Part shown: positions 398 to 17,046 of the stretch, in pieces
Layout: every line of letters begins with the position of its first letter
Numbering within the stretch: position 1 is the first letter of the stretch
DNA from: Rhodoferax sp.
Lineage (GTDB): Bacteria; Pseudomonadota; Gammaproteobacteria; Burkholderiales; Burkholderiaceae_C
NCBI RefSeq assembly: GCF_023701345.1
Contig: NZ_JAMPXE010000002.1
Coordinates: 14,109-78,108, forward strand
DNA: 64,000 nucleotides
Direction of reading: 5' to 3'
Notes under the pieces: model-generated
The model's database searches: none
Seen by the model: only the letters and a program-made list of their open reading frames with translations
What the model was told of the DNA's origin: nothing
Translations under genes and position numbers: made by a program

Positions 398-2020
398 ATG
401 AATCTCACCGAACAACTGCTGACCGCGCTCAAAAAGCACGGTGCGCGGCAGATTTTTGGCATCCCCGGCGACTTTGCCCTGCCCTACTTCCGCATCATCG
501 AAGAGTCGCAGATTTTGCCGCTTTACACCCTGAGCCACGAGCCCGGCGTGGGTTTTGCGGCCGATGCCGCTGCCCGCATCAATGGCAGTCTGGGCGTGGC
601 GGCGGTCACCTACGGCGCGGGTGCCTTGAACATGATCAATTCGGTGGCCGCCGCCTTTGCCGAGAAATCGCCGCTGGTGGTGCTTTCGGGCGGGCCGGGC
701 AAGAACGAGTCACGCTCGGGCCTGCTGCTGCACCACCAGGCCAAGACGCTTGACAGCCAGTTTCAGATTTTCAAGGAAATCACCTGCGACCAGGTGCGCC
801 TGGACGACGCCGAACGCGCCCCGGCCGACATTGCCCGCGTGCTGGCCAACTGCCTGCGCCATTCCGAGCCGGTGTACATCGAGATTCCGCGCGACATGGT
901 GGCCGTGCCCTGCCTGGAGGTGGTGCCCGAAGCCGCGTTCCAGGTGGACCCCGACGCGCTCGATGCCTGTGTCGATGAAATCCTGGAGCGCCTCGCCAGT
1001 GCCAAATCGCCCGTTTTAATGGCCGGCGTGGAAGTGCGCCGCTATGGCCTGGAAGACAAGGTCGCCACCCTGTCGCGCCGCCTGGGGCTGCCGGTCGTCA
1101 CCAGCTTCATGGGCCGCGGTCTGCTGGCCGACCAGGACGCGCCGCTGATCGGCACCTACATGGGTGTGGCGGGGTTCCCGGAAGTGACGCAGCTTGTGGA
1201 AAGCTCCGACGGCCTGTTTCTGCTGGGCGAGATCATCTGCGACACCAACTTTGCCGTGTCCGAGACCAAGATCGACATGCGCAAGACCATCCAGGCCTTG
1301 AACGGCCAGGTCAACATCGGTTACCACACCTACGCCAAGCTGCCGCTGGCCGCCGTGGTCAACCGCATGTTGGAACGTGTGCCCGGGCCCGACAAGGCCT
1401 TCAGCGTGACGCCGCAAAGCTTTCCCACCGGCTTGGCCGAGGACGACCAAAGCATCACACCCACCGACATTGCCACGGCCGTGAACGACCTGATGGCCAG
1501 GCACGGCAAGATGCCAATGGCCTCCGACATGGGCGACTGCCTGTTCACCGCCATGGAAATCAGCCACACCGCGCTGGTGGCGCCCGGCTATTACGCCACC
1601 ATGGGTTTTGGCGTTCCCGCTGGCCTGGGCCTGCAAGCCGCCACCGGTGAACGCCCGCTGATTCTGGTCGGCGACGGCGCCTTCCAGATGACCGGCTGGG
1701 AGCTGGGCAACTGCAAGCGCTATGGCTGGGACCCGATCGTGCTGCTGTTCAACAACGCCAGCTGGGAAATGCTGCGCACCTTCCAGCCCGAGTCCGGCTT
1801 CAATGACCTGGGCCACTGGGGCTTTGCCGAAATAGCGGCCGGGCTGGGCGGCGACGGTGTGCGCGTGGGCACCCGGGCCGAACTCAAGGCGGCACTGGAC
1901 AAAGCCATGGCCACGCGCGGCAAGTTTCAGTTGATCGAAATCACCATTCCACGGGGCGTGCTCTCCAACACGCTGGCCCGTTTTGTGGCGGGGGTGAAGC
2001 GGCTCAACGCGGCCAAATAA
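398..2020 (+). CDS. ipdC: Indolepyruvate/phenylpyruvate decarboxylase (ThDP-dependent, Azospirillum type)
   Basis: N-terminal FGIPGDFALP, HEPGVGFAADA with the catalytic Glu, LLHHQ, and the ThDP motif GDGAFQMTG...NN. GGAG RBS. Confidence 0.9.
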   Translation: MNLTEQLLTALKKHGARQIFGIPGDFALPYFRIIEESQILPLYTLSHEPGVGFAADAAARINGSLGVAAVTYGAGALNMINSVAAAFAEKSPLVVLSGGPGKNESRSGLLLHHQAKTLDSQFQIFKEITCDQVRLDDAERAPADIARVLANCLRHSEPVYIEIPRDMVAVPCLEVVPEAAFQVDPDALDACVDEILERLASAKSPVLMAGVEVRRYGLEDKVATLSRRLGLPVVTSFMGRGLLADQDAPLIGTYMGVAGFPEVTQLVESSDGLFLLGEIICDTNFAVSETKIDMRKTIQALNGQVNIGYHTYAKLPLAAVVNRMLERVPGPDKAFSVTPQSFPTGLAEDDQSITPTDIATAVNDLMARHGKMPMASDMGDCLFTAMEISHTALVAPGYYATMGFGVPAGLGLQAATGERPLILVGDGAFQMTGWELGNCKRYGWDPIVLLFNNASWEMLRTFQPESGFNDLGHWGFAEIAAGLGGDGVRVGTRAELKAALDKAMATRGKFQLIEITIPRGVLSNTLARFVAGVKRLNAAK

Positions 2021-2032
2021 GGGCCGAGCGCC

Positions 2033-3403
2033 TCACACCCAGGCGCATTCACAAGTGAAGTGCCGCAAATACTGCGGCTGCTTGGTAATCTTCACACCGC
2101 GGATGCTGGCGGCTTTTTGCTTGACCTCATCAATCACCTCAGCCGCATAGTCGAAGTGGCTCTGCGTGTACATGCGCCGCGGAAAAGCCAACCGCACCAG
2201 CTCCATGCTGTGGTAGGTCTCGGTACCGTCAGGCAGGCGCTTGCCGAACATCACCGAGCCAATTTCCACACCGCGAATGCCGCCCTCCAGGTACAAAGCG
2301 TTGCACAGCGCCCAGGCCGGGTAATGCGCCACCGGCATGTCGGGCAGCACGGTGCGGGCGTCGATGTAAACCGCGTGGCCACCGGTGGGTTTGACAAAGC
2401 CCACACCCGCCGCGTCAAGGCGCTCGCCCAGGTATTCGGCGGTGCGCAGACGGTAGCGCAGGTAGTCTTCCTGCATGCCCTCCTCCAGCCCCACGGCCAG
2501 CGCCTCCAGGTCGCGCCCGGCCAGGCCGCCATAGGTGGGAAAGCCCTCGGTCATGATCAGCACGTTGCGCACCGCGTCCATCCACTCCTCGCTGCGCAGC
2601 ACGATGAAGCCGCCAATGTTGACCATGCCGTCTTTTTTGGCGCTCATGGTGGCGCCGTCGGCATAACTGAACATCTCTTGCACGATGGTTTTGATCGGCG
2701 TGTTCTCGTAGCCCGGTTCGCGCATCTTGATGAACATGGCGTTTTCGGAAAAGCGGCAAACGTCCATGATGAAGGGCTTGCCATGCGCCTTGAGTAGCTT
2801 GGCGTAGGCGCGGATGTTGGCCATCGACACCGGCTGGCCGCCGCCGGTGTTGTTGGTCACGGTGATCATGCCAAAAGGTATCTGGTCACCCCGCTCTTTC
2901 AGCAATGCCTCCGCCCGATCCAAGTCAATATTGCCCTTGAACGGATGGAGGGTGGCGGGCTGCAAGCCCTCGGCAATCACCAGATCGAGCGCCTCGACGC
3001 CCAGATATTCCAGATTGGCGCGGGTGGTATCAAAGTGGCAGTTGTTGGGCACCACGTCGCCTTTTTTACACACTGCGGTGAACAATACTTTTTCTGCGGC
3101 ACGGCCCTGGTGTGTTGGCACAAAGAACTGCATGCCGGTGATGTCTTGAATCACTTTCTCCAGCCGGTAAAAGCTGCGCGCCCCGGCGTAACTCTCGTCG
3201 CCTTCCATGATGGCGCCCCACTGGCGCGAAGACATGGCGCCAGTGCCGGAGTCGGTGAGCCAATCGATCAACACGTCTTCGGCGCGCAGCTTGAACACGT
3301 TGAGTTTGGCGGCTTCCAGCAGTTGCTCGCGCTCAGGCCGCGTGGTCATGCGGATGGGCTCGACACTTTTGATGCGAAACGGTTCGATCAGGGTTTTGGG
3401 CAT
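2033..3403 (-). CDS. tnaA: Tryptophanase (PLP-dependent beta-eliminating lyase)
   Basis: EPFRIKSVEPI, TDSGT, SAKKD (PLP Lys). It has the tryptophanase-type residues HFDTT (Asp), VEIG (Ile) and LRHFT (His), rather than the Thr/Arg/Phe of tyrosine phenol-lyase. Start moved to ATG 3403 (AAGGA RBS). Confidence 0.85.
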   Translation of the reverse strand: MPKTLIEPFRIKSVEPIRMTTRPEREQLLEAAKLNVFKLRAEDVLIDWLTDSGTGAMSSRQWGAIMEGDESYAGARSFYRLEKVIQDITGMQFFVPTHQGRAAEKVLFTAVCKKGDVVPNNCHFDTTRANLEYLGVEALDLVIAEGLQPATLHPFKGNIDLDRAEALLKERGDQIPFGMITVTNNTGGGQPVSMANIRAYAKLLKAHGKPFIMDVCRFSENAMFIKMREPGYENTPIKTIVQEMFSYADGATMSAKKDGMVNIGGFIVLRSEEWMDAVRNVLIMTEGFPTYGGLAGRDLEALAVGLEEGMQEDYLRYRLRTAEYLGERLDAAGVGFVKPTGGHAVYIDARTVLPDMPVAHYPAWALCNALYLEGGIRGVEIGSVMFGKRLPDGTETYHSMELVRLAFPRRMYTQSHFDYAAEVIDEVKQKAASIRGVKITKQPQYLRHFTCECAWV

Positions 3404-3468
3404 GGTGTTTCCTTGCAGGATTTCAAAAAAACCTGAAGGTAGCACCGCCCGAGGGACCGTGGTGTCGG

Positions 3469-3507
3469 TTATTTCCAACAGCGGCCATACGTTTTGTGCC
3501 AATACAT
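3469..3507 (-). CDS. Candidate leader peptide MYWHKTYGRCWK upstream of tnaA
   Basis: 12-aa mini-ORF with 2 Trp and 2 Tyr codons, followed by a small hairpin and a T7 run before the tnaA RBS. No clear SD. Confidence 0.35.
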   Translation of the reverse strand: MYWHKTYGRCWK

Positions 3508-3576: not shown

Positions 3577-3605
3577 ATTATCCGGATTCAGTTCGTGGGC
3601 AGCAA
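3577..3605 (-). promoter_or_regulatory. Putative sigma70 promoter for tnaA (TTGCTG-17 bp-GATAAT)
   Basis: -35 at 3605-3600, -10 at 3582-3577, 17-bp spacer. This implies a leader of about 165 nt. Confidence 0.4.
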
Positions 3606-3619
3606 ATCCTTGGCCATTC

Positions 3620-3647
3620 GGCAAGCCAGCAAAAACACCGGCTTGCC
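3620..3647 (-). terminator. Stem-loop just after the SDR gene
   Basis: GGCAAGCC / GGCTTGCC arms 13 nt downstream of the stop codon. No strong U-tract. Confidence 0.45.
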
Positions 3648-3660
3648 TCAAGATCGGAAA

Positions 3661-4437
3661 TCAGGGCATGTACTGACCACCATTGACATTGATGATCTGT
3701 CCCGTGATGTAGCCACTGCAGGCATGTGAAGCAAGGAACAAAAAGGTTGGTGCAATCTCTTGCGCGGTAGCAAAACGGCCCATCGGGATGGTGGCATTAA
3801 TCTGGGCGCGCACCGCATCGTTCTTATCGGCATGGAAAGCGGTATCCACGGTTCCTGGTGCCACGACATTAAAACGGACGCCGTCCTTGGTGTAAGACGT
3901 CACCCAATTTTTTTGGATGGTATGGATCCAGGCCTTGGCGGCAGCATAAAGCGAAGCGCCCGGACCACCGCCCATGTAACTCGCAAACGAGCCTACCAGA
4001 ATCACCGAGGATGTGGTACCGCTGGCCTGCGCCGAGGCCTTCAGATGAGGCATCGCGTACTTGGTGACCATGTGCGCCGACCGAGCATTCAGATCGAACA
4101 CCCGATCAAAAAATTCATCGTCAATTTCGCTGATCTGTTTGCGACCGACCAACCCGCCAACGTTGTTGATAACCACGTCAATTCCGCCAAATCGAGCGAC
4201 GAAACGCTCGATCAGATCCTTGCACTCCAGGGTATTACACAGATCGCCCTGAAAAAACTCGGCTTCGCCTCCGATTTGGTGCAAACCTTCAAGCGATTGC
4301 TGCACGCCATCGGTCATTGCCTGTGAGGTGATTCCTATTTTTGCGCCATAACGAGCAAAGGTCTGTGCAGTTGCCAGCCCGATGCCTGCTGTTGAACCGG
4401 TGATCAATACGCGTTTGTCTTTCAAGTCCTTGAACAT
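3661..4437 (-). CDS. Short-chain dehydrogenase/reductase resembling DEH (4-deoxy-L-erythro-5-hexoseulose uronate) reductase A1-R/A1-R'
   Basis: TGSTAGIG, NNVGG and YAAAK motifs. The blocks GGLVGRK, GGGPGA, KNWV, TKDGVRFN, PGTVDTAFHADK, IPMGRF and SGYITGQ match my recollection of the Sphingomonas A1 alginate DEH reductases. Confidence 0.75.
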   Translation of the reverse strand: MFKDLKDKRVLITGSTAGIGLATAQTFARYGAKIGITSQAMTDGVQQSLEGLHQIGGEAEFFQGDLCNTLECKDLIERFVARFGGIDVVINNVGGLVGRKQISEIDDEFFDRVFDLNARSAHMVTKYAMPHLKASAQASGTTSSVILVGSFASYMGGGPGASLYAAAKAWIHTIQKNWVTSYTKDGVRFNVVAPGTVDTAFHADKNDAVRAQINATIPMGRFATAQEIAPTFLFLASHACSGYITGQIINVNGGQYMP

Positions 4438-4473
4438 TCTCTTTTTCCTTGTGATGAAAATCAGCTGCTAAAT

Positions 4474-4505
4474 TGGGATAGTTCCCACTTAAATAGTCTC
4501 ACTAT
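4474..4505. promoter_or_regulatory. Two palindromes in the AT-rich SDR/IclR divergent promoter (candidate IclR operators)
   Basis: TGGGA-TAGT-TCCCA (4474-4487) and ATAGT-CTC-ACTAT (4493-4505). Confidence 0.4.
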
Positions 4506-4596
4506 ATGGACACATAAAAACTATTTGACACAATGGTACTTTAATCTTACTATTTGGTCAACAAACTAAGTATTTGAGACAAAGTTGAGGTGCCCA

Positions 4597-5421
4597 TTGA
4601 ACAGTCCAACCAAACCATCACTGCCGACCGAAACAAAAGACGCCCAGAAAGGCGGCGGTACGCAAACCCTGTTGCGCGGATTGGCCTTGCTTGAATGTGT
4701 GGCGCAGGGCATATCGGATGTGAAAGGCATCGCAACACATCTTGGAACGCCCCGCAGCACCACCCACCGCATGCTCAACAGTCTGGTCAACGAGGGTTAT
4801 CTGCACCACGTCCCATACGGTGGCTATACGCTCGGTTTCCGACTGATCTATCTGGGCGCCAAGGCAAGTGAGCAGCGCCCGCTAGGTGCACTGGCCCGGC
4901 CGTATCTTGAAGCACTGGCGGTACAGACCGGTGATACGGTGCATTTGGGCACGCGGGAAGAAAACCGGGTGTTTTACCTGGACAAGATTTCCGGAACCAA
5001 GGGCCTTGAAATGCGGTCCCGGGTCGGCCATCGCATGCCTCTGGCCTCCACTGGCGTGGGTAAGGCGCTGATGTTGGGATTGGCACCGGATGCCTGGCAG
5101 GCGCTGTACAACGAGGCTGTGGCCGAGAAGGTGAATGCAGGGGAGCGTGTCTTGCTGAGTCCGTGGCCGCAATACCAAGAGGACATGCTGCGTTACCGGG
5201 CGCAGGGGTGGGTCATGGATCTGGAGGAGAACGAACTCGGAATCCGCTGCGTGGCCGCACCGATCAGGGACGTCAGCGGTGCGGTGGTGGCGGCAGTCAG
5301 CGTCGCCAGCGCGGTGCCTTACATCCCAAAAGAAAGGCTGTTGGCTCTGGGCCCGACTGTTTATGCCGTAGCCCAAGACATATCTGAAAAGCTGGGACTG
5401 GAGCGAAACCGTCATGAATGA
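4597..5421 (+). CDS. IclR-family transcriptional regulator
   Basis: HTH (LLRGLALLE...TPRSTTHRMLNSL) and C-terminal GKALM, EENELGIRCVAAPI. Start set at TTG 4597 after GAGG; the ORF track starts at 4585. Confidence 0.9.
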   Translation: MNSPTKPSLPTETKDAQKGGGTQTLLRGLALLECVAQGISDVKGIATHLGTPRSTTHRMLNSLVNEGYLHHVPYGGYTLGFRLIYLGAKASEQRPLGALARPYLEALAVQTGDTVHLGTREENRVFYLDKISGTKGLEMRSRVGHRMPLASTGVGKALMLGLAPDAWQALYNEAVAEKVNAGERVLLSPWPQYQEDMLRYRAQGWVMDLEENELGIRCVAAPIRDVSGAVVAAVSVASAVPYIPKERLLALGPTVYAVAQDISEKLGLERNRHE

Positions 5422-6415
5422 CATCAACAAGCAGCATACCCCTGAACTGCTGGCGCTGGATTGGGGCACATCGAGTTTGCGCGCTTTTTTATTGGGCGGC
5501 GATGGGCAGGTGCTACAGACCCGCAGCACCTCCCAGGGTCTGCAATCGCTTCCCGTGCCAGGTGCAGCAGGTTTTGAAAAGGCTTTTGCTGACATTGCCG
5601 GTGACTGGCTGGCGAACTGGCCGCAGTTGCCAGTCGTTGCCGGGGGCATGATCGGCAGTATCCAGGGTTGGAAAGAAGCACCGTATGTGCGCTGTCCTGC
5701 TGACGTCGGTTCACTGGCTGCACACAGTGTGCGTATGCCAAGCGGAGCAGGTGTCGACGTGGTCATTGCGCCAGGTGTGCTGTTGGATGAAGTCGGCATG
5801 GCCCCTGATGTGATTCGTGGCGAGGAAATCCAGATTGCTGGGGCCCTGGCAGAAAACCCGGCGCTCGCCGAGCGCGCCACCATGGTGCTGCCCGGGACGC
5901 ATTCCAAATGGGTCCAGATCAGAAACGGGCGGATCACCCACTTTTCCAGCTACATGACCGGCGAAATTTTCTCCGTTCTGGTCAAGCATTCCATCCTAGG
6001 CCGACTGATGACCGACGAGACCTCTGCCGAGGCCGGAGCCGAAAAGGCCGCCTTCATGCAGGGTTTGCAGGCCGCGCGCGACAGCCAGCCTGGTGATTTC
6101 ACACACCAGATCTTTGCCTCCCGGACCCTTGGACTGACGGAGCGTTTGCCGTCCCACCTTCTCAAGAGCTACTTATCTGGGCTGTTGATCGGCCACGAAC
6201 TGGTTTCAGGCTTGGCCAAGTCGTCAACTGTCTTGCAGGCGCAAGGTCCGTTGTTGCTGATCGGTGAGGGCACCCTGTGCCAGCGTTATGCAAGTGCTTT
6301 TGCGGCAATGGGCGTGGCGGTGGCCGGAATTCTCGACAACCCGGCCCCCCGTGGCTTGTGGGAGTTTGCCAAGGCGCTTGGATTGCTCAAAAAACCGATG
6401 CACATACTGAACTGA
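5414..6415 (+). CDS. dgoK: 2-dehydro-3-deoxygalactonokinase
   Basis: LDWGTSSLRA, DVIRGEEIQIAG, LPGTHSKW, MTGEIF, YLSGLLIGHE. Confidence 0.9.
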   Translation: MNDINKQHTPELLALDWGTSSLRAFLLGGDGQVLQTRSTSQGLQSLPVPGAAGFEKAFADIAGDWLANWPQLPVVAGGMIGSIQGWKEAPYVRCPADVGSLAAHSVRMPSGAGVDVVIAPGVLLDEVGMAPDVIRGEEIQIAGALAENPALAERATMVLPGTHSKWVQIRNGRITHFSSYMTGEIFSVLVKHSILGRLMTDETSAEAGAEKAAFMQGLQAARDSQPGDFTHQIFASRTLGLTERLPSHLLKSYLSGLLIGHELVSGLAKSSTVLQAQGPLLLIGEGTLCQRYASAFAAMGVAVAGILDNPAPRGLWEFAKALGLLKKPMHILN

Positions 6416-6421
6416 GACCCC

Positions 6422-7072
6422 ATGATGACCCACGAAATTCATACCCGTTTTGAGATCGCGCTGCAGCATTTGCCCCTGGTGGCAATTCTTCGCGGCCTGA
6501 CCCCAGCCGAAGCTGAGCCTGTAGCCAAGACCTTGTACCAGGCGGGCTTTCGCCTGATCGAAGTCCCGCTGAACTCGCCAGACCCGTTCACCAGCATTGG
6601 CCGCATCCGTCAGTGTCTGCCAGAGGATGCCCTGGTGGGTGCCGGTACGGTGCTGGATACAGCCGATGTGACGCGCCTGAAAGACATCAGCGCCGATCTG
6701 GTGGTGATGCCACATGCTGATACCGATGTGATCAGCGCCGCCAAAGCCCATGGTCTGATCAGTCTGCCCGGCATCGTCACACCGACCGAGGCCTTTGCGG
6801 CACTTAAGGCCGGTGCCAATGCGCTGAAGCTGTTCCCGGCCGAACTGGTGTCACCCGCCATCATCAAGGCGATGCGTGCTGTATTACCCAAAGCAACGCG
6901 TCTGTTCCCGGTGGGGGGCATCACACCCACCAACATGTCACCTTACTTGGCCGCCGGCGTCAGCGGTTTCGGATTGGGTTCCGCCTTGTATTCGCCTGGA
7001 GTCTCGCTTGCGCAGTTGTCCAGGCAAGCCGAATGCTTTGTTGCTGCGTGGAAGACGCAGTGCGCGGCATAG
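6422..7072 (+). CDS. dgoA: 2-dehydro-3-deoxy-6-phosphogalactonate aldolase
   Basis: PLVAILRG, IEVPLNSP, GAGTV, LKLFPAE, PVGGITP. Adjacent to dgoK. Confidence 0.9.
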   Translation: MMTHEIHTRFEIALQHLPLVAILRGLTPAEAEPVAKTLYQAGFRLIEVPLNSPDPFTSIGRIRQCLPEDALVGAGTVLDTADVTRLKDISADLVVMPHADTDVISAAKAHGLISLPGIVTPTEAFAALKAGANALKLFPAELVSPAIIKAMRAVLPKATRLFPVGGITPTNMSPYLAAGVSGFGLGSALYSPGVSLAQLSRQAECFVAAWKTQCAA

Positions 7073-7153
7073 AGAGTTCCTGACCATCGCGTCGGGGACC
7101 TCATTTTGTGTAGTTTTTTCACCAACTGTACTAATTTTTAACAATCAGGAGAA

Positions 7154-8125
7154 ATGATGAAATCGAAAACAGTGATAGCGCGTTTGTTGACGGCGATGTG
7201 CGCCTCCACCCTTTTACTCAGTGCCCCGGTTCGGGCTGCCGACTACCCGACCAAGCCGATTGAAGTGGTGGTGCCTTATTCCGCTGGCGGTGGGACAGAC
7301 CTGGTGACCCGCGCCTTTGTGGACACGGCCAAGAAATATCTGCCCAAGGCCATCGGTGTGGTCAACAAGACCGGCGGCGGTGGTGCCGTGGGTTTGTCTG
7401 AAATCGCGATGACGCGTCCCGATGGCTACAAAATCGGTACCGGCACGGTGGAAATCGCCATGCTGCCGCATATGGGCTTGGTGCAGTTCGCGGCTGATGA
7501 TTTTGCGCCTATCGCCCGCCTGAACGCGGAGCCGGCGGCCATTTCGGTCAACGCGAGTGCGCCATGGAACACCTATGAAGAGTTCATGACCTATGCCAAG
7601 GCCAATCCGGGCAAGGTGCGCATCGGCAATTCAGGTACCGGCGCCATCTGGCATCTGGCAGCGGAAGCGTTGTCGGACAAGACCGGCGCCAAGTTCAACC
7701 ACATCCCGTATGACGGCGCCAACCCCGCTGTGACGGCCCTGCTCGGTGGTCACATCGAAGCCGTTACGGTCAGCCCCGCTGAAGTGGTGGGTCATGTCAC
7801 GGCTGGCAAGGTCAAGATCTTGGCCGTGATGGCCGATCAGCGCCTGCCTTCGTTTGACAAAGTGCCCACACTGAAGGAAAAGGGCGTGGACCTGAGCATC
7901 CTGACCTGGCGCGGCATTGTGGTCCCCAAGAAGACCCCGCAAGACGTTCAGGACGTGTTGCGCACCGCAGCCAAAAAGACCGTGGAAGACCCGGCTTTCA
8001 AGGATCAGTTGGCCAAGATGAACCTGACACACGCTTATCTTGATGCCCCGGCATTCAAAGCGGCCATTGACAAGGACAACCTGTTCTTCAAAACCCTGAT
8101 GACCAAACTCGGCATCGCCAAGTAA
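7154..8125 (+). CDS. Tripartite tricarboxylate transporter substrate-binding protein (TctC/Bug)
   Basis: Signal peptide, YPTKPIEVVVPYSAGGGTD, NKTGGGG, PDGY, PYDGANPAVTALLGGH. Confidence 0.92.
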   Translation: MMKSKTVIARLLTAMCASTLLLSAPVRAADYPTKPIEVVVPYSAGGGTDLVTRAFVDTAKKYLPKAIGVVNKTGGGGAVGLSEIAMTRPDGYKIGTGTVEIAMLPHMGLVQFAADDFAPIARLNAEPAAISVNASAPWNTYEEFMTYAKANPGKVRIGNSGTGAIWHLAAEALSDKTGAKFNHIPYDGANPAVTALLGGHIEAVTVSPAEVVGHVTAGKVKILAVMADQRLPSFDKVPTLKEKGVDLSILTWRGIVVPKKTPQDVQDVLRTAAKKTVEDPAFKDQLAKMNLTHAYLDAPAFKAAIDKDNLFFKTLMTKLGIAK

Positions 8126-8134
8126 AACCTGATG

Positions 8135-8155
8135 CTGCCCGGTGACAGCGGGCAG
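8135..8155 (+). other. Stem-loop after the SBP gene (likely an mRNA stabiliser or partial terminator)
   Basis: CTGCCCG-GTGACAG-CGGGCAG, a perfect 7-bp stem 9 nt after the stop. Confidence 0.4.
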
Positions 8156-8248
8156 ACCGGACGACATAGCAAGGTCAGCCAACGTTTCCCGGTGGGCTTC
8201 GTGCCCGGCCCGGGTGCTTTGTGCTGCCAACTCGTGAGGTTCTAAACC

Positions 8249-8770
8249 ATGACTACATCCCAAGCCTCCACCCCAACAGAGCTGAAATCTGCGGGTTGGA
8301 ACATGGACATCGTTATCGCCGGCATCGTTTCGATGTTGGCCGTCGCCGCGATATTCTTTTCGCGCAAATTCCCTACCACTGGCCTAGCCACAGATATCGG
8401 TTCGGCGCGGTTTCCTCAAATTTACGCAGTTGCACTGCTGGTGCTGTGCGCGATGCTGATCGGCCGCCATCTGATCAAAGGCAGGCCAACGCCGTCCGCA
8501 GTGCCTGAGGGCATGGTGATCAATGTGGAAGTCCGCAACTACCGCAAAACCTTTGTCGGCATCGTCAGTTCGGTGATTTGTCTCGCCGCCATGCCCTACC
8601 TCGGTTATGGATTGGTCACCGTCACCTATCTGTCGTTTCTGATGTGGCTGATGGGCATGCGGCACAAGGCCTGGAACCCGCTCCTTGCCCTCACGATCAC
8701 CGCAGTCCTTTACTTCACCTTTTCGACCGGACTGAATGTGCCTTTGCCGTTCGGCAGCCTGTTTGAATAA
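8249..8770 (+). CDS. TTT small membrane subunit (TctB)
   Basis: About four hydrophobic segments, ARFP motif, ends LNVPLPFG. Lies between tctC and tctA. Confidence 0.85.
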   Translation: MTTSQASTPTELKSAGWNMDIVIAGIVSMLAVAAIFFSRKFPTTGLATDIGSARFPQIYAVALLVLCAMLIGRHLIKGRPTPSAVPEGMVINVEVRNYRKTFVGIVSSVICLAAMPYLGYGLVTVTYLSFLMWLMGMRHKAWNPLLALTITAVLYFTFSTGLNVPLPFGSLFE

Positions 8771-8797
8771 AACGAACCACTTCGTTGGAGACTTGCC

Positions 8798-10312
8798 ATG
8801 CAAGAACTGAATTTGCTTTTGAACGGGTTTGCCGCCTTGGCGCACCAACCCATGGCACTGCTGCTGGCTGTGATCGGCGTTGCCGTGGGTATTGTGATCG
8901 GTGCCATGCCGGGTCTGACCGCGACCATGGGGGTAGCGATCCTGTTGCCCTTCACCTTTGGCATGGACCCGGTGTCGGGCCTGCTGATGATTTCCGGCGT
9001 GTATTTCGGCGGGGTGTATGGCGGTTCCATTACCGCCATCCTGCTGAAAATTCCAGGCACCCCCGCCGCGGCCGCCACGGCGATCGACGGTTTTGAGCTG
9101 ACCAAAAAGGGCATGGCCGGCATTGCGCTGGGCACAGCGACCCTTTCGTCGTTCATCGGCGGTACCCTGAGCGTTATCGTGCTGGTGTTCATGGCGCCCC
9201 TGCTGGCGGGTGTGGCCCTTGAATTCAGCGCGTCGGAGACCTTTGCACTGGCCGTCTTTGGTTTGAGCATCATCGCCAGCATCTCGGGCAAATCGCTGGT
9301 CAAGGGCCTGATTGCCGGTTTTGTCGGCCTGCTGATCTCCACCATCGGGCTTGATCCGATGGGCGGCTTCCCAAGGTTTACCGGCGGTTTTGTTGAGCTG
9401 ATGAGTGTGCCGTTCATCCCGGTGATGATCGGCCTGTTTGCCGCTGCTGAAGCCTTCAAGCAGATGGAAACCAGCGACATCGTCAAGAGGAAGGCCGCAG
9501 AACTGGGCCGCATCATTCCGCCCTGGTCGGTCTTCAAAGGCCTGATCTTCACGATTCTGCGTTCGGCGGGTCTGGGGATTTTCATCGGGGCGATCCCGGG
9601 TGCCGGTGCCGACATCGCGGCGTTTGTGGCCTACAACGAAGCCAAACGCTTCAGCAAGCACCCGGAGAACTTTGGCAAGGGTGAACTGTCCGCTGTTGCG
9701 GCCTGCGAATCCGGCGCCAATGGCTGTACCGGTGGCGCCATGTTGCCGATGCTGACACTGGGCATTCCGGGGGATGCCACCACCGCAGTGATGCTGGGGG
9801 CGCTGACGCTGCAAGGTTTGCAACCTGGCCCGCTGCTGTTCAAGGATCACAGCGATCTGGTGTTCACCCTGTTTGCGGGCATGTTGTTCTGTTACCTGGC
9901 CATGTTGGTGATTGGTTTGGGGTCGCTGCGTTTCATCGGCAAGATCCTGCAGATGCCCAAGTCGGTACTGACACCCACCATCCTGGCGCTGTGTGTGGTG
10001 GGCACCTACGCGATCAACAACAGCATGTTCGACATCGGCATCATGCTCGCTGCTGGCGTGCTGGGCTACTTCATGGAGAAGTGGGATTTCCCGCCCTCAC
10101 CCATCGTGCTGGCGCTGATCATGGGCCCGATGGCTGAGAGCAACTTCCGGCGCGCCTTGTCGTTGTCCAACGGCAGCTACGACTTCCTCTATACCCGCCC
10201 GATCACCGCCACCTTCCTGGTCATCGCCTTGCTGTCGCTGTTCTTTCCGGTGATCAGCAGATACCGGCATAAACGTCTGCTACGCCGACTTGCCAGCGCC
10301 AACGCGGCCTGA
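8798..10312 (+). CDS. TTT large permease (TctA)
   Basis: GAMPGLTATM, YGGSITAILLKIPGTP, LTLGIPGD. 504 aa. Confidence 0.93.
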   Translation: MQELNLLLNGFAALAHQPMALLLAVIGVAVGIVIGAMPGLTATMGVAILLPFTFGMDPVSGLLMISGVYFGGVYGGSITAILLKIPGTPAAAATAIDGFELTKKGMAGIALGTATLSSFIGGTLSVIVLVFMAPLLAGVALEFSASETFALAVFGLSIIASISGKSLVKGLIAGFVGLLISTIGLDPMGGFPRFTGGFVELMSVPFIPVMIGLFAAAEAFKQMETSDIVKRKAAELGRIIPPWSVFKGLIFTILRSAGLGIFIGAIPGAGADIAAFVAYNEAKRFSKHPENFGKGELSAVAACESGANGCTGGAMLPMLTLGIPGDATTAVMLGALTLQGLQPGPLLFKDHSDLVFTLFAGMLFCYLAMLVIGLGSLRFIGKILQMPKSVLTPTILALCVVGTYAINNSMFDIGIMLAAGVLGYFMEKWDFPPSPIVLALIMGPMAESNFRRALSLSNGSYDFLYTRPITATFLVIALLSLFFPVISRYRHKRLLRRLASANAA

Positions 10313-10339
10313 TCCAACCATTTTGCAAAGGACAATGTG

Positions 10340-11245
10340 ATGAAGATAACCACCCTGAGCGCGGATGCGCTGCTATGTCCTGAGGTACGTAACGCCGTTG
10401 GCGAAAGCCCGGTCTGGGATGTGAATTCGGCTTGCTGGTTGTGGATCGACCAGGCTGGCAAGGTATTCCGTCTGGACCCGGCCACCGGTGAAACCCGTCA
10501 CTGGTCGGTGACAGAGAAAATCGGCAGCATGGTGCTGCGTCCCGACGGTGGTCTGGTGTGTTGTTGCGAGACCGGCATTTTTGATGTGGAGTTGGGTGAG
10601 AGCGAGGCCGCCGGCATGACACGGCTGGCCTCAATCACCCACCCGAAGACCGGCATGCGCTTCAACGACGGACGTTGTGACCGGCAAGGGCGGCTCTGGG
10701 TGTCCACCATGGTGATGGACATTTCGCTGGGTGATGCGTCCGGAAGCTGGTTTCGCTACACCCGCCAGGAGGGGCTCATCGCCTCCGACTTTGGCGACTT
10801 TGTGATTCCGAACGGTTCGGCCTTCAGCCCGGATGGCAAGACCTTTTATTGCTCCGACACCCATCGCGATGTGCGCATGCTCTGGCAATTTGACTACGAC
10901 ACCGACGCCGGTGTTCCGAGCAACAAGCGCCCGTTTGTCGACCTGCGCGATGCGCCGGGACGCCCGGACGGCGCGGCGGTGGACGTGGATGGTTGCTACT
11001 GGATTTGCGGTCTGGATGAAGGCAGCATCATGCGCTTCACCCCGCAGGGCAAGCTTGATCACAAGTTCATGCTGCCGATGCAAAAACCGACCATGTGCTC
11101 CTTCGGTGGCGCCGATGGCCAAACCATGCTGGTGACGTCGCTGTGCCGAGGCGAGAAAGACCTGGAGACCGATCCACATGCCGGTCGGCTGCTGATGTTC
11201 AGGCCGGGTGCACAAGGGATTGTTGAACCACGGCTGCTGGCCTGA
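10340..11245 (+). CDS. SMP-30/gluconolactonase/LRE family beta-propeller
   Basis: GESPVWD, RFNDG, PNGSAFSPDG and PDGAAVD, with the E/N/N/D metal ligands intact. Confidence 0.9.
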   Translation: MKITTLSADALLCPEVRNAVGESPVWDVNSACWLWIDQAGKVFRLDPATGETRHWSVTEKIGSMVLRPDGGLVCCCETGIFDVELGESEAAGMTRLASITHPKTGMRFNDGRCDRQGRLWVSTMVMDISLGDASGSWFRYTRQEGLIASDFGDFVIPNGSAFSPDGKTFYCSDTHRDVRMLWQFDYDTDAGVPSNKRPFVDLRDAPGRPDGAAVDVDGCYWICGLDEGSIMRFTPQGKLDHKFMLPMQKPTMCSFGGADGQTMLVTSLCRGEKDLETDPHAGRLLMFRPGAQGIVEPRLLA

Positions 11246-11332
11246 CGTATACGCTGGCAAACTGGTTCCAAGCAGCGCAACTCGGGTTCGTCAAGCGTGA
11301 TCACAACTTGGCTCACGATGCCGCACCCAAGT

Positions 11333-12844
11333 TCAGTTGCCACTCGTAACCATCGTGATCCTGGGTTTTCTAAAAAACCTCAACAGGATCGGCAAACACC
11401 ACAAGGTCAGGGTAAACACGCCCAGCCCTCCCGCAATCGGACGCTCGAAAAAAGCCAGCATGGAACCATCGGACTTGATCAATGAGGTAGTCAGGCTGCG
11501 TTCGACCAGTCCACCCATCACGATGCCAAGGATGGTGGGAGCCACGGGGAACCCATTTTCCTCCATCATGTAGGCGATGACCCCCATCACCAGCATGATG
11601 ACGATGCCGGATGCCGATGCATCAATTGCATACGAGCCGACGATACAGAACACGAGGATCAGCGGTGCCAGGATCAGTTTCGGGACGACGAGTACCTTGG
11701 TCCCCACACGGATCGCCAACAGACCCAGCGGGATGATTAGCAGATTGGCCAGCAGGAACACCAGAAAAATCGCCATGACCTGCGGCGCGTTGTTAACAAA
11801 GATCATCGGACCGGGGTTGAGGCCTTTCATGTAGAGGACACCAATCACGATGGCCGTGATCGAGTCGCCGGGAATGCCAAAAACCAGAGCAGGCACATAC
11901 GCACCCGACAACGCGGCGTTGTTCGCTGAGCAGGCTTCAACCAAACCTTCATCGTGGCCTGTTCCGAACTTCTCTGGCGTCTTGGAGCGCATTTTTGCCG
12001 TCGCGTAGGCAATCCAGGAACCGATATCGGATCCTGCTCCCGGCAAGATACCAATGATGGTGCCAATCAGCGAGCCGCGCACTACGTTAAATCGATATTT
12101 GAATAATGAACCACCCAGACCATCAAAGATGGTTCGGAAGTTGCCGACACTCTTAGGTCTTTTTACCTGTGTTGCGCCGAGCAGCGTGCGTATGACCTCG
12201 GGAATGGCGAACATACCGATGAGTGCTGGTACAAAAGATACGCCACTGATCAGAGAAGGCTGGTCGAAGGTAAATCGAGGATAGCCAGAAGATGCATCTT
12301 GACCCACTGTCGCTATCAATAATCCAAGCGCCAATGAAAGCAGTCCTTTGATGACGGATCCGGTTCCCAGCATGACAGCGGCAGACAAGCCCAGAAGAGC
12401 CAGCCAGAAATACTCGAAGCTGGTGAAATTGATGGAAACTTCTGCCAGTTGCGGAGCTGCCAAGATGAGAATCAAGGTGCCAAATATCCCGCCGATGCAT
12501 GAACATATGACCGAAATGCCAAGTGCTCGTCCTGCACGTCCTTGCTTGGCGTATTCGTGCATTTCGTCCACATATGCTGCCGACGCTGCAGTTCCGGGAA
12601 TGCGTATAAGAGCCGCAGGTATATCAGAAGCGAAAATCGCCATGCATGCCGTCGTGACGATAGCGGCAATCGCCGTCACGGGTGGCATATAGAAGGTTAA
12701 AGGCACCAGCATGGCTGTTGCCATCGTGGCCGACAGTCCGGGTACCGCCCCGACGAACAGGCCAAAAGCCGCGCACGCCAGCATCGTTATCAGCGTCTGT
12801 GCATTGAAAACAAGCGGCAATGCAGCCGACATATGATCGAGCAT
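11333..12844 (-). CDS. TTT large permease (TctA), second system
   Basis: GAVPGLSATM, LIRIPGT, LVFGIPGD. Start placed at ATG 12844, which overlaps the tctB stop (TGATG); the ORF-track extension to 13171 overlaps tctB. Confidence 0.9.
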   Translation of the reverse strand: MLDHMSAALPLVFNAQTLITMLACAAFGLFVGAVPGLSATMATAMLVPLTFYMPPVTAIAAIVTTACMAIFASDIPAALIRIPGTAASAAYVDEMHEYAKQGRAGRALGISVICSCIGGIFGTLILILAAPQLAEVSINFTSFEYFWLALLGLSAAVMLGTGSVIKGLLSLALGLLIATVGQDASSGYPRFTFDQPSLISGVSFVPALIGMFAIPEVIRTLLGATQVKRPKSVGNFRTIFDGLGGSLFKYRFNVVRGSLIGTIIGILPGAGSDIGSWIAYATAKMRSKTPEKFGTGHDEGLVEACSANNAALSGAYVPALVFGIPGDSITAIVIGVLYMKGLNPGPMIFVNNAPQVMAIFLVFLLANLLIIPLGLLAIRVGTKVLVVPKLILAPLILVFCIVGSYAIDASASGIVIMLVMGVIAYMMEENGFPVAPTILGIVMGGLVERSLTTSLIKSDGSMLAFFERPIAGGLGVFTLTLWCLPILLRFFRKPRITMVTSGN

Positions 12845-13305
12845 CACAACCAGCTCCCCATTGGCAAAGGCACGTAAAGCATTCGGGTCATCACCAGAGC
12901 CACTATGGCAACGAAACCAGCCGCCATGACAAAAATCAACGGCTTGCGCAAGCCCGACAGCAGGTACATTCCCGTGCACATCACCAGCGCGCCAAGCGGA
13001 AAACCGATATCTTCGAACCAGATGGAGAGTACCAGGGTACCCAAGAGACAGAAAACCACGCTTGCCAGGTGGAGAGGCTGGTACCAACCAGGATCCAGCG
13101 TGACAAGCGCGCTCTTGCGCAAGCGTCTTAGCGACATTGCGGCAACGATTGCACCACCGATCATCATGCATGTCCCGATCAGGGTGGGAAAGGTCGATGG
13201 GCCAATTTCTTGCCCAGGCATCTGAGGGAAATGCCGTGCTATGAGCAGCACGGCAAGCCCCAATGCCATAAAGAAAAGACCACTAAACGCATCGTGAAGC
13301 CGCAT
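12844..13305 (-). CDS. TTT small membrane subunit (TctB), second system
   Basis: Hydrophobic, GPSTFP motif, ends LYVPLPMG. GGAG RBS before ATG 13305. Confidence 0.85.
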   Translation of the reverse strand: MRLHDAFSGLFFMALGLAVLLIARHFPQMPGQEIGPSTFPTLIGTCMMIGGAIVAAMSLRRLRKSALVTLDPGWYQPLHLASVVFCLLGTLVLSIWFEDIGFPLGALVMCTGMYLLSGLRKPLIFVMAAGFVAIVALVMTRMLYVPLPMGSWL

Positions 13306-13381
13306 ATAAACATCTCCATGTCTGACTGCGCCAAAACCGCAGTCAGACATATACAAAAATCACTACTTAAATCACCACTTA

Positions 13382-14371
13382 CTACTTGGTAATACCTACT
13401 GCACGCAGGGTCGATCCAACGTCCGCATCAGACTTTTTCATGAAGCTCACAAACTCATCGCCGGCATTCCACTGGGTTGCGTATCCGCGACTATTCATGA
13501 ACTTGAGGTATTCCGGATTCACAACGACCTTCGCCACAGCTTTTTGCAGAGTCGCCAGGATATTTGGAGGAGTACCCTTTGGCGCAACCAAGCCGCGCCA
13601 TGATCCCATGGACCAGGACTTTCCTGTAGCTTCGGTAAACGTTGGTAAATCCGATTTTGCAGCCGCGCGTTTGTCAGCGAAAATAGCAACGGGCCGGATG
13701 CGACCAGCATCCATCAAGGCTTGCGCCTCGGGCAGAGAGGCTACAGCGAACTGCACGCCGCCAGCCGCCAGATCCTGCAAACCAGGGGCTGCACCTTCTG
13801 ACGGAACCCAGGCCACGCGATCAGCTGGAATATCCGACGCCAACAACATGCCAGCCATTGCCAGGTGATTCACGCCACCTTGAGCCGAACCCGAGGCCTT
13901 AAAGGCGCGGTTCGCACTGGCGCGAATGGCACCTACCAAGTCATTGGCTGTCTTGTAGGGCGAGTCCATCCGCACGAATACCGCTGCCGGGTCAGAGTTG
14001 TAGATCCCGATCGGTGCGTAGGACTGATAGGTGAGAGTCGTCAGCCCCTGGTAGTGCATGCTGCCGATCTCCAGCGTAGCCACGCCGATGGTGTAACCAT
14101 CCGGCGCTGCCGAAGCGATTGCGCTATGGCCCACCACGCCTGACCCCCCCGTTCGATTGACAACCGGAACGGGTACACCAAGTTCCTTCTCCAACAACGT
14201 GCCGATCATGCGCGCGGTTGCATCTGTTCCACCACCGGCGCCCCAAGGTACGATCAGGGTTACCGGCTTGGCTGGCCAGTCGGCTGCCTGTACCGCAGTC
14301 GCAAAAGAGGTGCCCAAAACCAGGGCTGTTCCTGCCACCAGGGCGAAACGTCGGTTAAAACACGTAGCCAT
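13382..14371 (-). CDS. TTT substrate-binding protein (TctC/Bug), second system
   Basis: WPAKPVTLIVPWGAGGGTD, NRTGGSG, APDGYT. Confidence 0.92.
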   Translation of the reverse strand: MATCFNRRFALVAGTALVLGTSFATAVQAADWPAKPVTLIVPWGAGGGTDATARMIGTLLEKELGVPVPVVNRTGGSGVVGHSAIASAAPDGYTIGVATLEIGSMHYQGLTTLTYQSYAPIGIYNSDPAAVFVRMDSPYKTANDLVGAIRASANRAFKASGSAQGGVNHLAMAGMLLASDIPADRVAWVPSEGAAPGLQDLAAGGVQFAVASLPEAQALMDAGRIRPVAIFADKRAAAKSDLPTFTEATGKSWSMGSWRGLVAPKGTPPNILATLQKAVAKVVVNPEYLKFMNSRGYATQWNAGDEFVSFMKKSDADVGSTLRAVGITK

Positions 14372-14425
14372 CAGTCTATCTCCTTAAAAATTGCGGCAGC
14401 AAAATACCACCGACTTGGTTGAAAA

Positions 14426-15838: not shown

Positions 15839-15870
15839 GATGTCTGTGTGCTTCTCGTAAAAAGTTGAAC

Positions 15871-16743: not shown

Positions 16744-16931
16744 GGCGGCTATTTCCTGAAATGCTCAAGGGCCGCACCGCGCGCTGACAACCGCCCAACG
16801 CAAGGCGAACCTACTTGACTGAAAAAGTACAAACTCACCGATATTGCAAGAATGGCAACTTCGATAAAGGGTAAGGATGTCATCATGAAATTGGGTTGAT
16901 AGGGTTGTATATGCGCTTGATGTATTGTTGT

Positions 16932-16947: not shown

Positions 16948-17046
16948 GTGAACTGGTGTTTACCCTATGTTGGCAATTTCCATCAAACTTGTACCTCACA
17001 TACAATGAGCAACCATCCCAACATGGACTACCCTGGAAGGAAAATT

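Follow-up and report, generated by a model that had tools for sequence, protein, structure and literature searches.

The alginate monomer pathway of Sphingomonas sp. A1 and Vibrio, which proceeds via DehR or A1-R, KdgK and Eda, and the De Ley-Doudoroff pathway, encoded in E. coli by dgoRKADT, are among the known systems closest to the gene cluster described here. In the former, the reduction of an aldehyde is followed by phosphorylation at C6 and class I aldol cleavage, and the two characterised members of its reductase family, A1-R and A1-R', convert the aldehyde of DEH into the C6 hydroxyl of KDG, with A1-R' strongly favouring the erythro configuration (D-galactonate, 0.2% and D-talonate, 3% of KDG). 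The latter combines DgoK and DgoA with an acid importer in a repressor-controlled operon, and E. coli DgoA favours KDPGal about 200-fold by the values in Table 1 of the source. The window analysed in this study, a stretch of 64 kb from a groundwater metagenome bin of Rhodoferax sp., contains a cluster related to both. It would share the logic of the alginate pathway, with a reductase of the same family at about 60% identity and an importer related to the TTT system of Vibrio sp. C42, but it lacks alginate lyases and KdgF, its kinase is DgoK (ASKHA fold, PF05035) instead of a PfkB-type KdgK, its aldolase is of the KDPGal type instead of Eda, SMP-30 is an additional component, its reductase contains Tyr154 in place of Arg or His, and its hosts inhabit soil and groundwater. 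With the E. coli operon it has in common an orthodox DgoK/DgoA pair, repressor-type control and an acid importer, whereas DgoD is missing, the regulator is of the IclR and not the GntR type of DgoR, the importer is a TTT system and not the MFS protein DgoT, and a DEH-reductase-type SDR and SMP-30 are added. Full-text literature searches retrieved no publication of this configuration, in line with the initial annotation, which had regarded it as new.

Gene content and control region

Open reading frame calls and Pfam searches verified eight genes between positions 3661 and 11245, with a divergent SDR gene followed by genes for IclR, DgoK, DgoA, TctC, TctB, TctA and SMP-30, and the proposed cluster of SDR, DgoK/DgoA, TTT importer and SMP-30 is thus present in full. 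The spacing between genes on the plus strand, which ranges from -8 to 123 bp, is consistent with a single operon.

Table. Coordinates and assignments of the cluster's features in the window.
Feature	Position	Strand	Assignment
SDR	3661..4437	-	A1-R/A1-R'-type short-chain reductase, DEH-reductase family, Tyr154 subtype, NADH-type cofactor loops
Control region	4438..4584	.	Shared and divergent; overlapping sigma-70-like promoters (promoter scan)
IclR	4585..5421	+	IclR-family regulator (HTH_IclR and IclR_C)
DgoK	5414..6415	+	2-keto-3-deoxygalactonate kinase family (PF05035, 2e-88)
DgoA	6422..7072	+	KDPGal-type class I aldolase (NCBIfam NF006600, 289 bits, cut-off 207)
TctC	7154..8125	+	Periplasmic binding protein of TTT importer (PF03401)
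TctB	8249..8770	+	Small membrane subunit (PF07331)
TctA	8798..10312	+	Large membrane subunit (PF01970, 8e-152)
SMP-30	10337..11245	+	SMP-30/gluconolactonase-type six-bladed propeller hydrolase, SMP-30/SGL (PF08450, 2e-68)

The control region harbours two exact ACTATWTGGWCA repeats at positions 4501 and 4549, bracketed by GTCTCA/TGAGAC, which are the only exact copies of this motif in the window and constitute a putative operator. Blocks of the intergenic region between the SDR and iclR are conserved across four genomes. The regulator, for which an alternative start is located 12 nt downstream and which is called with a length of 274 aa on an identical contig, did not reach the cut-off of any NCBIfam equivalog. 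The binding protein TctC is 51.5% identical to the apo-structure 4X9T. Its second-closest relative in the PDB is the TTT-C of Vibrio sp. C42 (25hk, 41.7% identity), a binder of unsaturated alginate oligosaccharides, whose 11 contact residues comprise six that are identical in TctC and a seventh where Phe is exchanged for Tyr, while the protein of the window carries its own conserved pocket signature Asn164-Pro165-Ala183. In SMP-30, equivalents of the regucalcin residues Glu18, Asn154 and Asp204 and of Arg101 and Asn103 are conserved, leaving the metal site intact.

The cluster had also been described as devoid of a dehydratase and a lyase, which is borne out by tblastn, where queries with DgoD of E. 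coli, with one Edd, UxuA and UxaC each and with lyases of three types gave no match in the 64 kb, and by Pfam scans covering the flanking genes together with other large open reading frames (about 44), where neither enzyme class was detected.

Conservation of the unit in other genomes

The unit is found in 31 of 80 fetched SDR loci, in Rhodoferax, Azospirillum, Stutzerimonas, Photobacterium and others, and although the linkage in these loci is partly a matter of ascertainment, since all 80 were retrieved via the SDR, its recurrence in other genomes reflects a non-chance association and supports the proposal that the eight-gene set is a functional unit. SDR, DgoK and DgoA are kept together across alpha-, beta- and gamma-proteobacteria, although the order of the genes takes at least four forms. 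The smallest units consist of SDR, IclR, DgoK and DgoA alone, as in S. stutzeri, where the order is IclR-DgoK-DgoA-SDR, and on a sediment contig with unrelated flanks (SDR/IclR-DgoK-DgoA). The latter was retrieved via DgoK and not via the SDR; a DgoK-based scan contributed only eight loci of its own, and the SDR is present in both of the two close-relative contigs found in this way that have sufficient flanking sequence. SMP-30 is missing in nine of the 31 loci, which marks it as an accessory member. The operon of Photobacterium pectinilyticum extends into genes for a DhuD-like protein and DhuI, which convert unsaturated uronates to KDG, and DgoK and DgoA are its sole kinase and aldolase. Finally, IclR-TTT-SDR modules without DgoK/DgoA nearby occur in Propionivibrio, in Azospirillum sp. 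TSO35-2 and in a third locus (L028), and no KdgK was found beside these TTT-only variants.

Homologues of DgoD, Edd or UxuA were found in or beside the unit in none of the 31 loci, the sole match within 10 kb being a UxuA-like open reading frame of 39% identity that one locus contains at a distance of about 9 kb to the SDR, and no dgoD is located within 10 kb in any of them or within the window. Its absence does not by itself constitute an anomaly, as the De Ley-Doudoroff genes are distributed over separate loci in Burkholderia and Rhizobiaceae; Shinella and Sinorhizobium contain dgoD-SDR-AraFGH without dgoK and dgoA.

The reductase and its kinase and aldolase partners

The likeness of the SDR to alginate DEH reductases, as initially noted, turned out to be strong. 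Its best matches in the PDB are A1-R (3afm) and A1-R' (4tkl), which align over their full length with E-values of 1e-103 to 1e-101 and about 60% identity to both crystallised enzymes, and the next match is far weaker (5e-34, ~1e-34). In neighbour-joining trees, which were calculated without support values, the SDR is placed within the DEH-reductase family and not outside, and the Dgo-linked SDRs, with a mean identity to A1-R of 67%, are as near to this protein as any other group and interleave with proven DEH reductases. Family loci in Vibrio and Enterobacterales encode PL17/PL5-type alginate lyases, SSS symporters and KdgM porins. The TGxxxGxG motif and the catalytic triad Ser150/Tyr164/Lys168 are invariant in our alignment. 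Following beta-2, residues 35-39 read G-I-T-S-Q and Arg39/Lys40 of A1-R are missing, in agreement with the earlier remark on the lack of a basic residue; the cofactor, which had been left open on these grounds, can be narrowed down, since the specificity loops (T16-A17 and T37-S38-Q39) resemble in their sequence those of the NADH-type A1-R' (TE and NSH) and not those of the NADPH-type A1-R (SQ and HGRK). A further distinction concerns Tyr154 in the loop GSFASYMGGG after the catalytic Ser, which is common to the Dgo-linked SDRs of four separate clades, at a position where characterised DEH reductases carry His or Arg. The same loop contains Arg-Glu in lyase-linked SDRs and His-Thr in A1-R and in Uxu- or Edd-linked SDRs, and Tyr154 is also found in seven loci counted as non-Dgo.

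DgoK and DgoA are 34% and 45% identical to their E. coli counterparts. DgoA carries equivalents of Glu37, Lys126, Ala11-Ile12 and Val154, and both stereo-determinants of the KDPGal type are present in all 31 loci. On other contigs, orthologues of 60-65% identity to the window's proteins (60-61% for DgoK in L092, L093 and L095) accompany a TRAP transporter as well as a DgoD that is 76-80% identical to the E. coli enzyme. Because these DgoD-paired proteins nest among the SDR-linked ones, again in trees without support values, they point to one lower module with alternative upper enzymes. The proximity of such close relatives to a genuine DgoD conveys an orthodox appearance instead of a shift towards KDG and, together with the determinants, disfavours the earlier suggestion that DgoK and DgoA are paralogues taking KDG.

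Proposed route, alternatives and comparison with known systems

The conserved operon points to an uncharacterised sugar-acid route. Its gene families, their synteny, the sequence motifs and the position in the trees are direct observations, whereas all reactions, the substrate and the regulation are our inferences. We tentatively propose that the kinase substrate is supplied by the SDR, which would hold the place of DgoD in canonical dgo operons, and that it arises by reduction of an imported 6-aldehydo keto-deoxy acid. An upper branch, with both divergent promoters under the control of IclR, would feed an ordinary DgoK/DgoA pathway without a dehydratase. The TTT system would import an acidic keto-deoxy sugar aldehyde, a DEH-type 4-deoxy-5-keto-uronate, whose terminal aldehyde the reductase would convert, probably with NADH, into the C6 hydroxymethyl group of a 2-keto-3-deoxy-hexonate for phosphorylation of this hydroxyl by DgoK, and SMP-30 may be an accessory hydrolase for ring opening, acting on the substrate as a lactone or in a cyclic form. 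The orthodox look of DgoK and DgoA makes KDGal the most likely hexonate, and the SDR would then act on the D-threo isomer of DEH. The production of KDGal from another aldehydo acid is thus the better fit of the two options raised initially, yet it comes without a known natural substrate: we know of no natural source of a D-threo 4-deoxy-5-keto-uronate, and the common uronates GlcA, GalA, ManA, GulA and IdoA, by our own stereochemical derivation, all give L-threo or L-erythro products leading to 4S acids. The erythro preference of A1-R', the interleaving of Dgo-linked SDRs with proven DEH reductases and the non-Dgo loci with Tyr154 also speak against this route.

The erythro preference of A1-R' would suit a cell that scavenges DEH or unsaturated mannuronate or guluronate released by the alginate lyases of other organisms, with the SDR generating KDG and DgoK/DgoA processing KDG and KDPG. 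The closeness to A1-R and A1-R', the lyases in family loci elsewhere, the oligosaccharides bound by a related TTT protein and the KDG-forming enzymes in the P. pectinilyticum operon all agree with such scavenging, which we nevertheless consider unlikely, given the KDPGal-type determinants throughout the 31 loci, the preference of E. coli DgoA, the finding that DgoK/DgoA form no diverged paralogue group, with equally similar proteins adjoining a genuine DgoD, and the groundwater origin. Several hosts should already possess Eda, as expected from Entner-Doudoroff use in these genera, and with KDPG as the product there would thus be no need for a dedicated aldolase. Slightly less improbable is the ordinary use of galactonate or galactonolactone with a dehydratase encoded elsewhere, where the TTT system would import D-galactonate, SMP-30 would be a galactonolactonase, DgoK/DgoA would be canonical and the SDR would share the regulator in a side role. 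In its favour are the orthodox DgoK/DgoA, the SMP-30 protein with its intact metal site, since oxidative sugar pathways typically include such lactonases, and the precedent of split loci in Burkholderia, Shinella and Sinorhizobium. It is at odds with an SDR that is not of the sugar 1-dehydrogenase type and that is retained in minimal units that lost TTT and SMP-30 and in both judgeable contigs found via DgoK, with the loss of SMP-30 in nine loci, and with the lack of a nearby dgoD. We regard as quite improbable that two separate functions are merely co-regulated, the SDR and TTT making KDG for KdgK and Eda encoded elsewhere and DgoK/DgoA, with or without SMP-30, taking KDGal from another source under a shared IclR sensing 2-keto-3-deoxy acids. 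Although the modules without DgoK/DgoA and the precedent of enterobacterial KdgR, an IclR-family protein that senses KDG, would be compatible with this arrangement, the SDR stays beside DgoK/DgoA despite repeated reshuffling, even in transporter-free four-gene units, and the TTT-only variants have no adjacent KdgK.

A dehydratase-free feed into a KDGal kinase and KDPGal aldolase, as in our preferred reading of the SDR as supplier of KDGal, is reportedly also found in the DauA-D route for 3,6-anhydro-D-galactose from carrageenan in Zobellia, which is said to use an aldehyde dehydrogenase and an enolase-superfamily cycloisomerase; both are absent from the window's cluster. The DgoK-DgoA-AraFGH-SDR cluster of Burkholderia has a similar layout of kinase, aldolase, transporter and SDR, likewise without a dehydratase, but it differs in its sugar ABC transporter and in an XylB-like sugar 1-dehydrogenase with 27% identity to the window's SDR. 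The alginate locus of Vibrio sp. C42 (AEM 2026, PMC13390454) resembles the window in placing a TctCBA importer beside a DehR-family reductase and, unlike it, encodes lyases, a porin, an SSS symporter, KdgF, KdgK and Eda. Between the binding proteins of the two systems, Gly24, Thr25, Asp26, Pro104, Thr225 and Arg227 are conserved, whereas Ser20, Asn164, Pro165 and Ala183 of TctC replace Gly, Ser, Glu and Gly in the Vibrio protein, which suggests that their ligands are probably related but not identical.

Composition of the cluster and its surroundings

The eight genes of the cluster, listed in the table together with other features of the window and of related loci, consist of an SDR and a divergently transcribed operon, in which neighbouring genes overlap by at most 8 bp or lie at most 123 bp apart. 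The SDR-iclR spacer is conserved in four genomes and contains overlapping divergent sigma-70-like promoters. ACTATWTGGWCA occurs there in two exact copies at a spacing of 48 bp and in a degenerate third one between them, and the set is bracketed by GTCTCA/TGAGAC. The repeats constitute a putative IclR operator; the window contains no other exact ACTATWTGGWCA copy, and no second operator copy is found before another gene. The neighbours on both sides are unrelated to the cluster: genes for an indolepyruvate decarboxylase and for a tryptophanase-like lyase lie upstream, and a second, convergent TTT operon that also encodes a GlcD-like oxidase and a PrpB-like lyase lies downstream.

Coordinates of features in the window and in related loci from other genomes or metagenomes (L numbers)
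Sequence	Positions	Orientation	Content
Window	398-3502		indolepyruvate/phenylpyruvate decarboxylase (TIGR03394, 895 bits) adjoining a beta-eliminating lyase of the tryptophanase family (NF009709, 667 bits); the pair may form an aromatic amino-acid or indole unit
Window	3600-17800		cluster included; G+C 0.54-0.59, against 0.60-0.63 in most of the window; third-position G+C also lower
Window	3661-11245		cluster of eight genes
Window, SDR		minus strand	classical SDR, 258 aa
Window, operon		divergent from SDR, 147-bp spacer	iclR, dgoK, dgoA, tctC, tctB, tctA, SMP-30/gluconolactonase-type gene
Window	11333-17751	convergent on cluster	second acid-catabolic unit: TctA with N-terminal extension, TctC, GlcD-like FAD oxidase, PrpB/methylisocitrate-lyase-like enzyme, GntR/FCD regulator
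Window	11333-13171		612-aa ORF, the second TctA
Window	18454-31451		gene set like that of the lower lig pathway (protocatechuate 4,5-cleavage), with a GFO/OxRdtase_C dehydrogenase, a pair of Amidohydro_2 proteins, RraA-like aldolase, PrpF, TRAP transporter, LysR regulator
Window	57265-60206		adjacent pair of nitrogenase-component-1-type (PF00148) genes; NifEN/NifDK-like or DPOR-like both possible
L004 (soil MAG CTSoil_114)	8408-10000		about 1.4 kb extra between iclR and SDR, adjoining the conserved spacer; second IclR gene (65% identical) after SDR
L033 (Rhodocyclales)	7984-19261		SDR between edd and tandem pectate-lyase genes (two to five here and in L042)
L050 (JASGKX010000001.1)	9911-10777		SDR; neighbours aspartyl-tRNA synthetase and LacI-type regulator
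L060	6467-10774		UxuA-UxuB-UxaC-SDR (L060 and L079: Uliginosibacterium sp. H1, a Moraxellaceae bin)

The initial annotation had described a sugar-acid cluster with no dehydratase and no lyase, an account that proved right wherever it could be checked, down to the G-I-T-S-Q sequence following beta-2 of the SDR. In tblastn searches, the 64 kb gave no match to DgoD of E. coli, to Edd, UxuA or UxaC queries or to lyases of three types, and no PL5-, PL17- or PL1-like sequence turned up. When the flanking genes and other large ORFs of the window were scanned against Pfam, neither a sugar-acid dehydratase nor a polysaccharide lyase was identified. The 612-aa ORF downstream, which we had considered as a candidate IlvD-type dehydratase, was ruled out as such, being a second TctA. 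In 31 related loci, too, no galactonate dehydratase homologue resides inside or beside the unit, and the sole dehydratase-type match within 10 kb is a 39% identical UxuA-like ORF about 9 kb from the SDR of one locus (L051).

Family relationships of the reductase and distribution of the unit

The closest structures of the SDR in the PDB are the DEH reductases A1-R (3afm/3afn) and A1-R' (4tkl/4tkm) from Sphingomonas sp. A1, which align over all 258 residues with 60-61% identity (E 1e-103 to 1e-101, compared to 5e-34 for the following entry) and with which the protein is interleaved in a neighbour-joining tree. The glycine motif TGxxxGxG is present (T13-G14-S-T-A-G18-I-G20), and S150, Y164 and K168, which correspond to the catalytic Ser150/Tyr164/Lys168 of DEH reductases named in a review, are invariant (alignment A1). 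As judged from these alignments, the SDR is a member of the DEH reductase clade of classical SDRs comprising A1-R, A1-R' and DehR, a clade whose characterized members reduce DEH to KDG with NAD(P)H. The coenzyme is set by a short loop (residues 13-17) and a long loop (37-43), with the sequences TGSSQ/HGRKAPA in the NADPH-dependent A1-R and TGSTE/NSHVDPA in the NADH-dependent A1-R'. The equivalent TGSTA/TSQAMTD of the SDR is closer to the NADH type, since Thr16 is present and Arg39/Lys40 are absent, and we thus predict that the enzyme uses NADH. The protein does not pass any model of the NCBI family library, and its Azospirillum orthologue is labelled in RefSeq merely as 'SDR family NAD(P)-dependent oxidoreductase'. 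We also observed that the A1-R' protein (PDB 4tkl, 'Sphingomonas sp. A1') is 100% identical to the SDR of L050, whose contig of 2.77 Mb is labelled 'MAG: Rhodocyclaceae bacterium 5N065'; one of these two taxonomic assignments is questionable.

In a scan of one genome per species, the best 80 of 582 SDR relatives, the nearest of which are found in Rhodoferax spp. (88-89%), distribute into four genomic contexts. In Vibrio and Enterobacterales, the SDR belongs to genuine alginate loci, where it is accompanied by alginate lyases resembling PL17 and PL5, an SSS symporter, GntR and KdgM porins. In several Rhodocyclales the gene adjoins edd and tandem pectate lyases, and in Uliginosibacterium and a Moraxellaceae bin it is part of UxuA-UxuB-UxaC-SDR; both contexts suggest roles of the family beyond alginate, such as mannuronate or guluronate reduction. 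The fourth group contains the 31 loci with DgoK and DgoA. These Dgo-type units occur in Rhodoferax, many Azospirillum species (on chromids), Skermanella, Caldimonas, an Acetobacteraceae strain, Stutzerimonas stutzeri and Photobacterium pectinilyticum, and in groundwater and sediment metagenomes; the sequencing runs containing the window sequence, DNA runs only, are likewise groundwater and sediment metagenomes. Together with the low G+C of the region, this distribution across classes fits horizontal acquisition. At least four gene arrangements are found, with the SDR divergent from iclR, with the SDR last on the same strand (as on plasmid p2 of A. brasilense Sp7, where the SDR is AMK58_RS22765 and the unit lies between clpB and hypothetical genes), with the SDR after tctA and no SMP-30, or with iclR-SDR first. 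The unit of S. stutzeri (L031) does not contain a TTT. Beside TTT-only variants of the SDR module, we found no KdgK that would point to an interchange with DgoK, the neighbours being LysR, MlaD, NnrS and similar genes. As a check against bias of the SDR-based search, we ran a second search of metagenome contigs with DgoK as the starting point, in which one contig (L091) carries a bare SDR/IclR-DgoK-DgoA set amid unrelated neighbours, with SDR and DgoK being 90% and 81% identical to those of the window. The finding is real and conserved.

The Dgo-linked SDRs share a sequence feature, as members from four separate clades, including the protein of the window, all carry Tyr154, which follows the catalytic Ser by four positions. 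This differs from both characterized enzymes, the region carrying Arg-Glu in lyase-linked SDRs including A1-R' and His-Thr in A1-R and the Uxu- and Edd-linked proteins.

Stereochemistry of the reductase and the kinase-aldolase pair

DgoK is matched over its full length by PF05035 (2e-88), and DgoA exceeds the cut-off of the NCBIfam KDPGal-aldolase model NF006600 (288.9 bits versus 207) and contains the motifs LIEVP and ALKLFP with Glu37 and the Schiff-base Lys126. The stereo-determinants of KDPGal-type aldolases, Ala11-Ile12 instead of Pro-Val in beta-1 and Val154 instead of Thr in beta-7, were experimentally shown to set 4R selectivity (PMC4915726). DgoA of the window and of all 31 related loci has both of them (LPLVAILRG and FPVGG). 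Three contigs from the DgoK-based search (L092, L093 and L095) encode TRAP-DgoD-DgoK-DgoA, with a DgoD that is 76-80% identical to the E. coli enzyme. Their DgoK (60-61%) and DgoA (64-65%) are as close to the proteins of the window as the SDR-linked ones of Azospirillum, and they nest among SDR-linked sequences in neighbour-joining trees. This intermixing defines one orthologous kinase-aldolase module, paired with either DgoD or an A1-R-type SDR, and together with the stereo-determinants it rules out a diverged paralogue group specialized for KDG. The DgoK-like paralogues of pSymA and pAt, with MR_MLE and DHDPS genes as neighbours, were uninformative. The dgoK locus of S. meliloti is reportedly arranged as IclR-dgoK-dgoA-SMP-30.

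A1-R and A1-R' both convert DEH to KDG (4S), and A1-R' strongly disfavours threo-configured acids, with D-galactonate and D-talonate reaching 0.2% and 3% of KDG. By our own stereochemical derivation, the C3 hydroxyl of GlcA, GalA, ManA, GulA and IdoA is located on the side that becomes 4S, and keto-uronates derived from alginate or pectin thus give KDG or L-KDGal, never D-KDGal (4R). The sequence evidence in this way sets up a conflict between a reductase family yielding 4S acids and an aldolase that appears built for 4R acids. By the same derivation, pectin-derived DKI was rejected as substrate, as its reduction would lead to L-KDGal (4S,5S), which is mismatched to a 4R aldolase and whose cleavage would yield L-glyceraldehyde-3-P. 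Saturated uronates, with L-guluronate giving D-gluconate and D-mannuronate giving D-mannonate, were rejected since a dehydratase would still be required.

Transporter, SMP-30 and interpretation of the unit

The three consecutive transporter genes match PF03401, PF07331 and PF01970 and thus encode TctC, TctB and TctA. TctC is 51.5% identical to a ligand-free Polaromonas structure (4X9T) and 41.7% to PDB 25hk, which is the TTT-C of Vibrio sp. C42, as the published residue numbers agree exactly. Latter protein binds unsaturated alginate oligosaccharides and is required for growth on alginate. Of its 11 contact residues (F G G T D P S E G T R, compared to Y S G T D P N P A T R in the window), six are identical and a seventh is changed from Phe to Tyr; of the three residues proposed to set specificity, the window protein retains Gly24 and Thr225 and has Ala in place of Gly183. 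The signature Asn164-Pro165-Ala183 is conserved among Dgo-type loci, suggesting a ligand that is probably related, not identical, to that of the Vibrio protein. The SMP-30 protein contains a six-bladed propeller domain (PF08450, 2e-68) with the motifs GESP, RFNDG, IPNG and PDG aligning with regucalcin. It keeps the metal ligands Glu18, Asn154 and Asp204 and the pair Arg101/Asn103 (human SMP30 numbering), and should therefore be an active hydrolase. Its absence from 9/31 Dgo-type loci makes it an accessory member.

Our best reading, held with less than even confidence, is that the SDR would take over from DgoD, its substrate being a 6-aldehydo keto-deoxy acid that is imported and then reduced. 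In a more specific and doubtful version, the Tyr154-subtype SDR would reduce a natural, so far undescribed D-threo 6-aldehydo-2-keto-3-deoxy acid to KDGal, or SMP-30 would be the missing catalyst (lyase, eliminase or epimerase) acting on an imported uronate or oligo-uronate to give that compound. Tyr154 is one lead in favour of the second option of the initial annotation, that the SDR makes KDGal from another acid. The first option, that the DgoK/DgoA paralogues take KDG, is weakened by the KDPGal-type determinants and by the orthology of both proteins to DgoD-linked ones, and the corresponding scavenging of DEH via KDG appears unlikely. The best single argument in its favour is the operon of P. 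pectinilyticum, which is extended by genes for a DhuD-like SDR and for an orthologue of DhuI (4u8e, E 1e-75) and thereby ties the unit to unsaturated-uronate metabolism. An ordinary galactonate locus with dgoD elsewhere would match the orthodox kinase and aldolase; we regard it as rather unlikely. Two co-regulated but separate functions appear very improbable for a set of genes kept together in several arrangements.

The unit is widespread, yet its key enzyme is labelled by annotation pipelines only as 'SDR family oxidoreductase'. The contradiction between a 4S reductase and a 4R aldolase is clean and testable. It could be resolved by a natural keto-uronate not recognized so far together with a route to KDGal that needs no dehydratase, by a relaxed stereospecificity of DgoK/DgoA or by a hidden catalytic role of SMP-30. 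The D-threo substrate, if true, would define a new dehydratase-independent entry to the galactonate lower pathway and an unrecognized environmental sugar acid. A resolution would also provide a ligand for a TTT subfamily whose nearest structure, 4X9T, is an orphan, and it bears on how lyase-less rhizosphere and groundwater bacteria share in the breakdown of uronate polymers.

Full-text searches of the literature returned no description of a unit combining DgoK/DgoA with an A1-R-type SDR, TTT and SMP-30. In the canonical De Ley-Doudoroff locus KDGal is supplied by DgoD or an IlvD-type dehydratase, neither of which is found in the cluster or the 64-kb window, and alginate-utilization loci combine alginate lyases, KdgF, KdgK and Eda with DehR, a set not found here, where kinase and aldolase are of the Dgo type. 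The absence of dgoD is by itself unremarkable, since Burkholderia, Shinella and Sinorhizobium split the De Ley-Doudoroff genes over separate loci; what stands out is that an aldehyde reductase of the alginate type is consistently paired with KDGal enzymes that look orthodox.
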